The notes below the pieces were generated by a model, which ran no database searches, was not told where the DNA came from, and worked only from the letters and a program-made list of their open reading frames with translations. A program made the position numbers and the translations under genes. From positions 1-64,000 of the forward strand of contig CAUYUJ010000149.1 in NCBI GenBank assembly GCA_963575745.1: DNA of 64,000 bases. Direction: 5' to 3'. Source of the stretch: Prorocentrum cordatum. Taxonomy: Eukaryota. Shown piece after piece: positions 29,079-62,674 of the stretch; within the stretch, counting starts at the first letter, position 1, and each line of letters starts with the position of its first letter.

Positions 29079-30988
29079 AATCACCGCCGCCCCCTGCCCT
29101 TTCGGAAGCGCCGATGCGGCCGACTGCTGTGGCCAGAGGTCTGCCAAGTTATTGGGCCATATGTTCCCCGAATCGGTCTTTACAGCCTTCGGGGAACACG
29201 TGGGGGAGGACGGGGAGGAGAGGAGAGATAGGAAGGGGGGGAATGGAGGAGGAGGTCTCTTGAGTGCCTTGTTGGCTACTCTGGGTTTATATTGGGCCAC
29301 ATGTGCGGTCTTGGAAGCATCTTGGGGGCCTCTTTGGATGCCTTGCGGCCTTCCTGTTCTGCCTGACGCCGTCTGGGCTGGGTTGGGGGCCTCTCTGTGG
29401 CCTCATTTGGGTTTATCGTGGCCGTAGACGCCAGCGTGGCCATCTTGGGCCGTCTTGGGTGCATCTTGGAGCCATCTTACCCGTCTTGGAGGCCATTTTG
29501 GCCGTCTTGGAGGCATCTTGGAGGCCATCTTGGGCCATCTTGGCCGTCTTGGAGGCCATCTTGGGCGTCTTGGACGCCTCTTGGGCCGCCTTGAGGCCTT
29601 CTTGGGGGCCTCTTGGGCCGTCATGGGGCCATCTTGGAGGCCTCTTGGGTGCTGTTGGGGCGATGTTGGGGACCTCTTGGGCCGTCTTGGGCTGTCGGAG
29701 AGCTGAAAAGAATAACATGCCAAAATCCTTCAAAAACCTGAGGAAAATCAATGATTTTAACCTATTCGGGCCTTCCTGGAGGGCGTCTTGGAGGGCTCTT
29801 GGGCCGTCTTGGAAGCCTTTTGCGGGCCTTTTGGGCCGTCTTACACCATCTTGAGGCCATCTTGGGCCGTCTTGGGTGCATCTTGGAGCCACCTTACCCG
29901 TCTGGGAGGCCATCTTGGCCGTCTTGGAGGCATCTTGGAGGCCATCTTGGGCCATCTTGGCCGTCTTGGAGGCCATCTTGGGCGTCTTGGAGGCCTCTTG
30001 GGCCGTCTTGAGGCCCTCTTGGGGCCTTCTTGGGGGCCTCTTGGGCCGTCATGGGGCCATCTTGGAGGCCTCTTGGGTGCTGTTGGGGCGATGTTGGGGA
30101 CCTCATGGGCCGTCTGGGGCCGTCGGAGAGCTGAAAAGAAGAACATGCCAAAATCCTTCAAAAACCTGAGGAAAATCAATGATTTTAACCTATTCGGGCC
30201 TTCCTGGAGGGCGTCTTGGAGGGCTCTTGGGCCGTCTTGGAGGCCTTTTGCGGGCCTTTTGGGCCGTCTTAGACCATCTTGAGGCCATCTTGGACCGTCT
30301 TGGGTGCATCTTGGAGCCATCTTACCCGTGGGAGGCATCTTGGAGGCCATCTTGGGCCATCTTGGCCGTCTTGGAGGCCATCTTGGGCGTCTTGGAGGCC
30401 TCTTGGGCCGTCTTGAGGCCCTCTTGGGGCCTTCTTGGGGGCCTCTTGGGCCGTCATGGGGCCATCTTGGAGGCCTCTTGGGTGCTGTTGGGGCGATGTT
30501 GGGGACCTCTTGGGCCGTCTTGGGCCGTCGGAGAGCTGAAAAGAAGAACATGCCAAAATCCTTCAAAAACCTATAGAAAATCAATGATTTTAACCTATTC
30601 GGGCCTTCCTGGAGGGCGTCTTGGAGGGCTCTTGGGCCGTCTTGGAAGCCTTTTGCGGGCCTTTTGGGCCGTCTTAGACCATCTTGAGGCCATCTTGGGC
30701 CGTCTTGGGTGCATCTTGGAGCCATCTTACCCGTCTTGGAGGCCATCTTGGCCGTCTTGGAGGCATCTTGGAGGCCATCTTGGGCCATCTTGGCCGTCTT
30801 GGAGGCCATCTTGGGCCAAGTTGGGGCAACAAAGGCATTGACAGACGGATTTTGGGAAAATTACGGGTGGCCGGCGGGACGGGCCGAAGCCCACTGGGGA
30901 GTTCTTCTAGAAAAAGAACCAAAACCAAAACCTGAATCGTCCAGCGCGCCGTGCACCCCTGTGGCAAGACCACAGGGGGCGGCGGATT
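29079..30988. mobile_element. Non-autonomous TIR element built of GGCCATCTTGG/GGCCGTCTTGG repeats with three ~400-430-bp internal units
   Basis: AATCACCGCCGCCCCCTG (29079-29096) versus CAGGGGGCGGCGGATT (30973-30988). The unit GAGAGCTGAAAAGAA.AACATGCCAAAATCC occurs at about 29698, 30126 and 30531. Confidence 0.65.
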
Positions 30989-31055
30989 GCAGCCTTGTCG
31001 GCCCGAGCTGCCGCGGGGCCGCGGCGCGTCTTGCTGCTGCACTGCCTGCCCGACA

Positions 31056-59987: not shown

Positions 59988-62063
59988 TCAACTGGGAGGG
60001 GCCTCGCGGCGTTCCTTCCACAGCGCGCGCGCAATCGGCCGGCCACAAAACTTCGCGACGCATGCCGGCGAGAACGCACTCGCGGATCTCTTCTGACCCC
60101 TCCTTCGGCCAAATGCAGCTACAGATCCACCGAGACCCTCGCCCCTGTAGTTCCAGCGCTTCGCTGGCTCGCCGCCTTCCATGCAGAGCTCTAGAAACAT
60201 ACGCATTCTAGGCTTGACTATAAAATGCGCTGGGGGCGCGTCTTCCAAAGCGACCGCCTGCGCAGTGCATTTCATTGAACGCTCGCGATGAATGTCCACG
60301 CCAAACGGGCGGCTGCCAGACAGCGCGTCGCAAGACCGACTCAAGCCCGCCATCGCAGCGCGAACAGGCGATTCTACAGCTGCCCGCTGGTCGGCGCCAC
60401 CCCGACGATTCAGGAATGCATCCGCGATCTCCATCGCCCATGGAACCGCGTGCCTGAGCATCCCCGCGCCGCCCCTCATCTTAGCCGTCTTCGCCTTCCT
60501 CCCTTCACGACGCCACGCGTCAGCTTCGGCAAGCGGCTGGTCTTCTCACCTGGCGGCTGCCTGTCGTAGAACGCCAGCAAATGACGATGCAGCGTCAGCG
60601 CGCGGGCTTTCTGGGCAGCGTAAGCAACCTTTCTGCGCGTCACGAGATACCAGACCAAAGCGCCGACGCAGTCAGCCGCCACTCCCAGGTCAACGGCGCG
60701 CAGCCAGTCTAACTTCAGCAACTTGTCGCTTGCAAACGGCACTGGGAGGAGAGGGCACACAGTCGCGCCCGAAGCGATGATCTCCCTAATGATGTCCGAC
60801 CATGTGCGGCGATGCGTTCCCCGCGGCGCGTCTCTCCCAGTCTGCGACTTCACCTGAACGCGGGCTTCTGAAAGCGGTGGCGCCTCCTCTTCCTCAACCT
60901 CATTATCCTCCTTCTGTTCCCCCTGCTCCTCCATGCGCTCCTCCTTCTCCCGTTTTTCCTCCTCCTGCTCCTCTTCCTCCTTCTCCTCCTGCCCCTCCCC
61001 CCCCAGCCCCCCCCCCCCCCCCCTTCCTTCCTCTTCCCCTTCCCGCCCTTCCCCCTGCCTGCGGCAGGGGCCGCAAGACGACGACCCCCTGCGAGATGGG
61101 CGTTTTCACCCATAAGTCCCCCCTCCCGCTGGGGGATTTTCATCCACAAGCTCCCCTCCAAGAGGTGATATTGATCCATAAGTTTCCGCGGTGATTCGGG
61201 CGCCCACGGGCCTCGAACTTCTCGATGCTGCACAGGAAGCAAACCTCCTCGCCCTGCCAGCCAGGTAGTTTGAGCACCTCCTTCATCATCTCCCAGCCCC
61301 CCTTGATCTGGCAAAGCACCCCACCAATCGGTAAAGAACCCCGCTGCCGCTTCCTCCAGGCGTCTGTCGATTCGACAAGAGGGAGCCCGCCGCGCCGCGC
61401 CGTCGGCCGACGCTTCGCAGCAAGATGAATGAAACTCCATTGCACCACGGCAAAGATATCATCAAACGTGTTGGGGCCAACATGCTCTTTGAGGAACGCA
61501 GCGAGCGGCGCCCGCGTGTTTTTTTCCAGCTGCCTGCAGCCCCTGGCAACATGATGCTGACGATGTCTGCGGTCATTCATCGGCCCCAGAAGCAGGGGGC
61601 GCCGTCCTGCCACGCGCCCAGGGCCACGAGATCGTCGCAAACGCTCTCAACCCTCGCATTCTGCACGCGGCGCCAAGACACGCCGTCGAGATTCGATGTC
61701 TCCAGAAGCGCCCGCCGATCGCCAAAATGATGAAGCTTAGACAGGATCTCGCGCGGAAGCAGCATCGCAACATCCATCAGCTGCTCTGTTTCAGACTTGG
61801 GGGCCCAGCCCCTCACCTTGCAGCGATGCAGAGGAGGCCACCCCTCCTTGAAGAATTGGCGCCTGAATCTCCTGGATGCGTTTTTTCATGCCCGACGCGG
61901 TCCCAGAGGTCTGCAGGTCGGCACCTCCTGTCGCAGACGCAGAGACGGCGTCATTGATCAACTGAGCACCGCGCTGCCCGCTGATCACGCTGCTGCTGAT
62001 TAGGTCCTCCACGTTCGCTCTCAGCCGCCTCTGCGGTGGCAACTGCAGCATCTCGCAAGGCAA
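59988..62063 (-). pseudogene. Transposase 3, a more divergent member of the same superfamily; heavily decayed
   Basis: LVALGAWQDGAP...QIKGGWEM...CFLC...LDWLRAVDLGV...MRGGAGMLRH...VKPRMRMFLEL...WNYRGEG preserves the same motif order with catalytic positions mutated. Stops, frameshifts and an insert at about 60.85-61.2 kb. Confidence 0.6.
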
Positions 62064-62674
62064 CTCGCGCTTGGGAAGCGCGCCGACGGCCCTCGAGCCC
62101 CCCCGCGAGAGGCGAGTGCGACTACGGATATGCCCTGAGCCAATGATACGGAAGCGAACGGATGAGCATTTCTCTGCACCGCGCCCCTCCTGGAGGGGAT
62201 CCTTCAGTCCCGCGGCTCCGCCCCCTCAGCCGCGTGACCTTCCGCCCCCCCTCCGCTCCGCCCTCCGCCCACCACCGCCGTCTGTCCAACGCCTGCCCTG
62301 CTCTCCTGCAATGCCTCCATTCGCGCCGCGGCCACTGATGTCCGACGCCCCCCCCCCCCCCCCCCCCCCCCCCCCCCCCCCCCCCCCCCCCCCCCCCCCC
62401 CCCCCCCGCCCCACCCGCACCCCGCCCTGCGGCGAGGGGGTTTGTTTCGAACCGGGGCGGGCAGAGAAACGCGCGGCCTCTCACGAGGGGGACCTCTGCA
62501 AGAAAGAATAGTGGCGCGTCATGTTTTTTCCATGCGTCGACGCGCAGGCTGCAATGAACGCAATAGCTGTGTCGGGCGAGGCAGTACTTCCCACCCTGCA
62601 TATGGAAGTAACTATGGATATGTATCGAGGCCCACAGATCAATCGAGGAACTTCTTGAAGCGCTTGAGCAACAG

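Follow-up and report, generated by a model that had tools for sequence, protein, structure and literature searches.

The 64,000 nucleotides (nt) of the dinoflagellate Prorocentrum cordatum analysed here (positions 1 to 64,000 of contig CAUYUJ010000149.1) are referred to as the window. The G+C content of the window is approximately 60%, and microsatellites and satellites are abundant. Coding-like open reading frames (ORFs) form two one-directional groups, running rightward at 31-37 kb and leftward at 40-64 kb; they converge at approximately 37000-40300, and simple repeats occupy the gap between them. The ORF at 35477-36526 has 80% identity to an unnamed P. cordatum protein and the ORF at 33097-34362 has 89% identity to another protein of this species; therefore, DinoSL, the 22-nt trans-spliced leader (SL) of dinoflagellate mRNAs, is the appropriate motif to search for. 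Here, we describe degenerate DinoSL-like motifs that stand in sense orientation just upstream of coding-like ORFs and of two transposase-like genes, and we suggest that they are probably decayed relict DinoSLs, left at the 5' ends of genes that were retroposed long ago.

Spliced leader-like motifs upstream of open reading frames

Eight degenerate SL matches had been listed in the initial annotation, and all eight strings are present at their positions (Table 1). All eight have the sense orientation of the ORF that follows on their strand, with three sites on the plus strand (30987, 33043 and 34518) and five on the minus strand (42134, 44157, 51229, 58363 and 62134). The ungapped identities given for 30987, 33043, 34518 and 51229 are borne out (13, 16, 15 and 14 of 21 positions, respectively). 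An ungapped identity of 14/21 is found at 44153, 51229 and 58363, and sites 42134 and 62134 require gaps to match the SL. From the end of the motif to the next ORF-opening ATG, the distances are, in the order of the sites, 48, 33, 43, 72, 57, 69, 14 and 82 nt. The range of 15-75 nt claimed earlier is accurate for six sites, while the values of 14 and 82 nt fall outside it.

Overall, the identity of the motifs to the SL is 62-76%. With gaps allowed (score +1/-1/-1.5), seven of the eight sites have a score of at least 8.5. Exact 9-10-mers of the SL are preserved at sites 34518, 42134 and 44157, and exact 8-mers at 58363 and 62134. The 5' part of the SL, CCGTAG, is matched at 5/6 positions or better in five sites, and the AG at the 3' end of the motif is kept in six of the seven sites that are not at chance level. 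The run of four T is intact in only one of the eight sites (42134), and TTTG is present in its place in two (33043 and 42134). At three sites (33043, 34518 and 51229), CCGTAG has become C/G-CATAG, which is the change expected from decay of the only CpG in the SL.

For ungapped matches in the whole window, 200 dinucleotide-preserving block shuffles served as the null. Strong matches are in excess, with 16 observed versus 7.5 in shuffled sequence at 14/21 or better, 4 versus 1.06 at 15/21 or better, and 2 versus 0.06 at 16/21 or better. Similarly, gapped scores of at least 9 are reached at 15 places versus 6.0 +/- 2.5 in 40 shuffles, none of which gets to 15. The minus strand, on which the ORFs at 40-64 kb lie, holds 13 of these 15 best gapped matches. 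At the level of the individual site, we took every 120-nt window in the real sequence and determined the percentage that contain a match at least as good. It is 0.09% for 58363, 0.28% for 33043, 0.47% for 34518, 0.85% for 62134, 1.3% for both 44157 and 51229, and 1.8% for 42134.

To relate the motif to genes, ORFs were defined as coding-like if they start with ATG, have at least 150 amino acids (aa) and a residue entropy of at least 3.8, and have a G+C content at third codon positions (GC3) of at least 0.75 that exceeds the content at second positions (GC2) by at least 0.2; 8 of 91 ORFs qualify. This definition makes no reference to the motif, and the motif itself was fixed a priori. A match with a score of at least 8.5 that ends at most 120 nt upstream in sense is present for four of the eight coding-like ORFs (starts at 33097 on the plus strand and at 42061, 44099 and 51159 on the minus strand), as compared to 1.8% of all windows. 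The control stretches, antisense and inside the ORFs, gave 0/8 each, and none of 500 permuted decoy motifs was found at four ORFs (maximum 2, mean 0.13). The enrichment is stable when the length and GC thresholds are varied in 16 combinations (binomial P from 5e-7 to 0.04). The observation in the initial annotation is partly confirmed; site 30987 is at chance level.

The window also contains a satellite (Table 1), the GGCCATCTTG unit of which shares 9/10 positions with the SL core GCCATTTTGG and therefore produces SL look-alikes. On the plus strand, 51 copies have at most one mismatch, and degenerate stretches of the satellite are present at 51260-51500 on the minus strand, at 20200-20480 and at 14557-15700. 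In a competition test, the single SL motif was compared at each site with 1394 satellite 21-mers from the whole array in both orientations. The SL beats the best satellite 21-mer at six of the eight sites (score 11 versus 8.5 at 33043, 8.5 versus 7.5 at 42134, 9 versus 8 at 44157, 9 versus 7.5 at 51229, 12.5 versus 4.5 at 58363, and 9.5 versus 6 at 62134). CCGTAG, the SL-specific 5' part, is absent from the satellite. Site 30987 is better explained by the neighbouring satellite. At about six of the eight sites, the SL-like signal is real.

The main satellite array is located directly upstream of the gene group on the plus strand and has the same orientation. In loose-end consensus sequences of other runs, this repeat is found in many contigs as its reverse complement (CCAAGATGGC). 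On the minus strand at 20164-20199, two SL-like 3' parts (CCATTTCGGCTCGAG and CCACGTCGGCCCAAG) lie 15 nt apart, a spacing as in tandem truncated relicts. We did not accept this pair as clean evidence of a tandem relic and regard it as ambiguous: a satellite stretch ends with it, and for its second half the satellite is the better fit. A match that had not been listed before, at 53627-53649 on the minus strand, has a score of 10 and lies 13 nt before the ATG at 53613. This ATG opens a 173-aa ORF with a GC3 of 0.80; an ORF on the plus strand overlaps it, and the coding strand is ambiguous.

Table 1. SL-like sites, genes, poly(A) remnants and satellite in the window, in order of position
Feature	Position	Strand	Remarks
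Satellite, GGCCATCTTG unit, period 10-11	29438..30816	+	405-nt higher-order unit x3.3
SL-like site, 13/21, gapped score 5.0	30987..31007	+	Chance level; satellite fits better
Gene 1: 94-aa ORF 31056-31340, then Q-rich ORF in other frame (stop-to-stop 31348-32499)	31056..32502	+
Poly(A) remnant A10CCACA8	32745..32770	+	~245 nt past stop 32502
Weaker second SL-like match, score 8.5 (satellite 8.0)	32798..32820	+	~30 nt past poly(A) remnant
SL-like motif CCATAGCCGTTTGGGCCCAGG, 16/21, gapped score 11	33043..33063	+	Ends 33 nt before ATG 33097
421-aa ORF, family unassigned by Pfam	33097..34362	+	GC1/2/3 0.65/0.51/0.80
SL-like motif GCATAGGCGTCTTGGCTCAAA, 15/21, exact 9-mer TTGGCTCAA	34518..34538	+	43 nt before ATG 34582
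Transposase-like gene 1	34997..36966	+	80-87% identical to P. cordatum P0001
587-aa ORF, coding-like, GC3 0.79, C-terminal half low-complexity	40298..42061	-
SL-like motif (GGAGT)TAGCTTTTGGCTCGAG, exact 9-mer TTTTGGCTC, score 8.5	42134..42154	-	72 nt before ATG 42061
Poly(A) remnant A9CAAACA	43273..43292	-	~190 nt past stop 43479
206-aa Lys/Gln-rich ORF, GC3 0.85	43479..44099	-
SL-like motif TCAGTAGCCATTTCGGTTTGCTTAAG, exact 10-mer GTAGCCATTT, score 9	44149..44174	-	49-57 nt before ATG 44099
341-aa ORF, GC3 0.87, large uncharacterised protein family	50134..51159	-
SL-like motif CCCATAGCATCTCTGGTCCAAG, 14/21, score 9	51229..51250	-	69 nt before ATG 51159; borders degenerate satellite stretch
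Transposase-like gene 2, diverged, split over several frames	55034..58348	-
SL-like motif TCCGTAGCACATTGTGCTCAGT, gapped score 12.5, best in window	58363..58384	-	Ends 14 nt before ATG 58348
SL-like motif TCCGTATCATTGGCTCAGG, gapped score 9.5	62134..62152	-	82 nt before 86-aa ORF, coding status uncertain

Downstream genes, poly(A) remnants and related copies

Three genes follow the motifs on the plus strand. In gene 1, the stretch 31600-32502 has a GC3 of 0.84, and the gene has a weak match to TFIIA that is under the Pfam cut-off. The 421-aa ORF has relatives in two P. cordatum proteins (P0005, 89% identical, and P0007, 60%) and in a metagenomic protein (P0006, 56%); with the N-termini aligned, its start, MAAPKKSAFEDLQSFF, is conserved in all three. 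Motif 34518 is located 459 nt upstream of the start of transposase-like gene 1 as aligned to P0001. Relative to P0001, this gene has frame changes near 35200, 35620 and 36385-36571, and contigs of related copies have small indels at 35197, 35550 and 35604 within it. The gene may be a pseudogene, or the shifts may be bridged as introns in the public gene model.

On the minus strand, a near-length search with the 587-aa ORF returned no homologue. The family of the 341-aa ORF comprises 161 representative proteins at E<=0.001 and 52 at E<=1e-10; no clear Pfam family was found for the 12 relatives that were checked. Transposase-like gene 2 was recognised piecewise. A 116-aa ORF at 57998-58348 aligns to P0001 from M1 to M1 (E 2e-4), 57532-58155 aligns to residues 108-241 of P0001 (E 6e-12), and P0002 matches at 56847-56599 and 55345-55034. 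The alignment from residue 1 supports the ATG at 58348, before which the best motif in the window stands, as a true start codon.

The initial annotation counted three transposases; we find only two transposase-like genes, and the motif stands before both of them. The label itself is based on a language-model feature search only, in which P0001 is close to the clusters of Plavaka (PF18759) and Transposase_21 (PF02992) and its ten best named hits all belong to a common family or clan. Even at E<=1, P0001 matches nothing in Pfam, and a structure model of this protein built from a four-row alignment has a predicted local distance difference test (pLDDT) score of 34, which is too low for fold comparison. 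Thus, the likeness to CACTA/EnSpm-Plavaka-type transposases consists in this proximity in the feature search, while the genes described here differ from them in the lack of a Pfam match at E<=1 and in the lack of terminal inverted repeats around 30.8-37.6 kb, as none of the 18 inverted pairs in 30800-37600 frames the block of three genes. More generally, none of 41 ORFs searched has a Pfam match above the cut-off, and the eight proteins tested at E<=1 gave nothing. A tRNA scan of the window and an Rfam search at gathering scores gave no match. For 16 ORFs searched by tblastn, there are no paralogues within the window at E<=0.01 beyond self-matches.

A-rich tracts (12 or more A per 16 nt) are scarce between 28 and 64 kb: three lie on the plus strand and one on the minus strand. 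Two of them follow an ORF on the sense strand of the genes, and both of these ORFs are preceded by a motif (Table 1, poly(A) remnants).

Related copies of part of the locus were found when DNA contigs of four public runs were aligned to 30900-50899 at the 80% level. Contigs over stretches of 31.0-36.9 kb differ from the window by approximately 7-17%, while the flanking stretches are covered by near-identical contigs, e.g. with 5 differences in 844 nt. Summed contig depth was rejected as a measure of copy number, a use against which the alignment tool warns. In contigs of related copies, gene 2 is linked both to gene 1 and to gene 3, and therefore the block of three genes would later have been copied as DNA. 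These contigs skip 32897-33089 and 34441-34637, which hold motifs 33043 and 34518, while the adjoining ORFs align; one short contig spans 34305-34548 with 18 differences. These skipped stretches argue weakly against a strong constraint on the sequence around and including the motifs, at a resolution that would not reveal an island of 21 nt inside a diverged stretch. Alignment searches of metagenome and viral contig collections gave no further copies of the transposase-like gene, and there are no further copies of the 421-aa ORF in viral contigs. The conserved N-terminus of the 421-aa ORF, searched for as a degenerate DNA pattern, has no match in metagenome contigs.

Origin of the motifs

Slamovits and Keeling are said to have described dinoflagellate retrogenes tagged by relict DinoSLs in 2008. 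Today, relict DinoSLs upstream of genes are treated as an accepted retrogene tag (PMC5585692; Song et al. 2018 review, PMC6050394; review PMC11453091), and in two Symbiodiniaceae they are reported before >20% of the gene models and mostly, or in their most conserved form, at positions -50 to -100 relative to the start codon (PMC5585692; PMC6050394). Haro et al. 2025 (PMC12014239) report relicts and retrogenes in the transcripts of Prorocentrum as well, with 477 retrogenes for P. minimum, and in the account of the P. cordatum genome, dinoSL is found on the transcripts of 20.1% of the gene models (PMC10666404). The published criterion for a relict is an exact 9-mer or more of DinoSL, in sense, within 500 bp upstream. 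The motifs in the window have much in common with such relicts: partial or mutated copies of CCGTAGCCATTTTGGCTCAAG stand in sense within ~100 nt upstream of the start codon and occur before genes beyond chance, their offsets fit the -50 to -100 pattern as reported, the ORFs are uninterrupted, and an A-run stands on the 3' side of two units, though not of the others. They differ in that they are more decayed than the published criterion allows, with an exact 9-mer in 3/8, and in that the genes belong to uncharacterised multi-copy families, two of them transposase-like.

Based on these data, we suggest the following model. A polyadenylated mRNA to which the 22-nt leader had been trans-spliced would have been reverse-transcribed and inserted into the genome. 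The resulting gene copy would have consisted of the SL, a 5' untranslated region (UTR) of 14-82 nt and an uninterrupted ORF, followed by a 3' UTR ending in an A-run that would have survived in two cases. Subsequently, the relic would have drifted without strong constraint, with loss of the CpG and erosion of the T-run in a genome of 60-65% G+C. Finally, the block at ~31.0-36.9 kb with its three genes, one of them transposase-like, would have been recopied as DNA. While the motifs with their sense orientation and their enrichment shortly before coding-like ORFs, the two poly(A) remnants and the diverged related copies are observed, retroposition itself, neutral decay and the order of events are what we infer from them. 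The statement in the initial annotation that relic SLs mark retroposed dinoflagellate genes fits this model and is also the explanation that we favor. Its suggestion that the elements may have been assembled gene by gene from mRNAs is compatible with a separate relic for each ORF and with the two poly(A) remnants. Both of its inferences, gene-by-gene retroposition and an SL mimic that acts as promoter or leader, restate ideas that are in print in Song et al. 2017 (PMC5585692).

Several observations weigh against a relict origin. The window holds no SL match above 16/21. At the looser level of 13/21 or better there is no excess of ungapped matches (37 observed versus 42.7 shuffled), and exact 9-mers are only weakly in excess (13 versus ~6.3 expected). 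The published exact-9-mer criterion is passed by only three of the eight sites. Half of the coding-like ORFs lack a match (starts at 17174, 31600 and 53354 on the plus strand and at 63581 on the minus strand), and the ORF filter and the span of 120 nt were set only after the motif offsets were known. At site 30987, 23% of the 120-nt windows are equally good and the satellite outscores the SL by 9.5 to 5.0; site 34518 is a tie (10 versus 10), and site 51229 abuts degenerate satellite units. In the scan of 28-64 kb, six units have no poly(A) remnant. Neither a parent gene nor a target-site duplication was found.

As a rival reading, the sites could be chance look-alikes together with stray GGCCATCTTG units, with nothing derived from the SL. 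Depending on its orientation, the satellite is similar either to the SL core or to the SL 3' end, its unit matches GCCATTTTGG at 9/10 positions with 51 copies on the plus strand, and the absence of an excess at 13/21 or better also speaks for this reading. Moreover, satellite stretches have their proximal edges at sites 51229 and 30987, another such stretch ends with the apparent tandem relic at 20164-20199, and the satellite fits 30987 better and 34518 equally well. Nevertheless, six of the eight sites fit the SL better than the best of the 1394 satellite 21-mers, and the CCGTAG-like 5' part has no counterpart in the satellite. The background of 1.8% was taken from the real sequence, satellites included, and yet four of the eight ORFs have a match, a number that the permuted motifs never reach. 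Thus, we consider an origin by chance and from the satellite unlikely.

If the sites are derived from the SL, they could still be maintained as a cis element, i.e. a core promoter or a built-in leader for multi-copy genes, as the initial annotation had also envisaged. Song et al. 2017 (PMC5585692) proposed TTT(T/G) in the relict as a basal promoter, which is the same idea as this SL mimic. The motifs described here have the same position relative to the start codon, within the 100 nt in which that proposal expects them, six of the seven sites above chance level have AG at the 3' end, and both transposase-like genes are preceded by a motif. However, the T-run is mostly eroded (T4 in 1/8, TTTG in 2/8), while in the relicts of that study the T-run element is reported to be kept in 62-72%. 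An identity to the SL of only 62-76% and the decay of the CpG point in the same direction, and the sites have no deviations in common that would suggest a distinct selected consensus. Likewise, the related contigs do not align at 80% over 32897-33089 and 34441-34637, while they align over the flanking ORFs. Therefore, a hard-coded SL mimic is unsupported by these data, and we regard a maintained element as rather improbable. An origin of the sites as whole or fragmentary SL RNA genes, in other words as leader donors, has nothing in its favor except the sequence resemblance. The best match in the window is 16/21, there is no exact 22-nt SL exon followed by a splice donor and an Sm site, the Rfam search at gathering scores was negative, and each site is followed by an ORF and not by an SL intron; leader donors are accordingly hardly conceivable here.

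A bolder variant of the cis-element idea is that the block of three genes at ~31.0-36.9 kb is a mobile unit that uses SL-derived leaders as promoters or trans-splice landing pads, and that the GGCCATCTTG satellite is an amplified SL fragment that acts likewise. Under this variant, a selfish element would have recruited SL-derived sequence for its regulation. We consider this variant very unlikely.

If the motifs are relict DinoSLs of old retrogenes, as we favor, even badly eroded SL relics would be recognisable by their position and strand alone. Uncharacterised multi-copy genes, two of them transposase-like, would be added to the dinoflagellate genes with an RNA intermediate in their past, and at least one round of spread of the transposase-like copy would probably have gone through retroposition of the mRNA instead of its own transposition. 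No new question is opened by this, as relict DinoSLs before more than one-fifth of genes and the promoter idea are already in print.

Other repeats in the window

Upstream of the satellite, a unit of ~855 nt is repeated three times in tandem at 12100-14400 on the plus strand, with near-identical translations of the ORFs that start at 12101, 12957 and 13812. At 21300-26300 on the same strand, a long array consists of ~79-nt units that are built from CACCACGGGA and ATCGATCTCACT sub-repeats (repeat families D6, D10, D12, D14 and D15). It is followed at 26400-27800 by a block of low G+C content (0.39) with microsatellites of the (CATATA)/(CATGTA) type. At 62340-62412, there is a C run of ~65 residues (repeat family D20).

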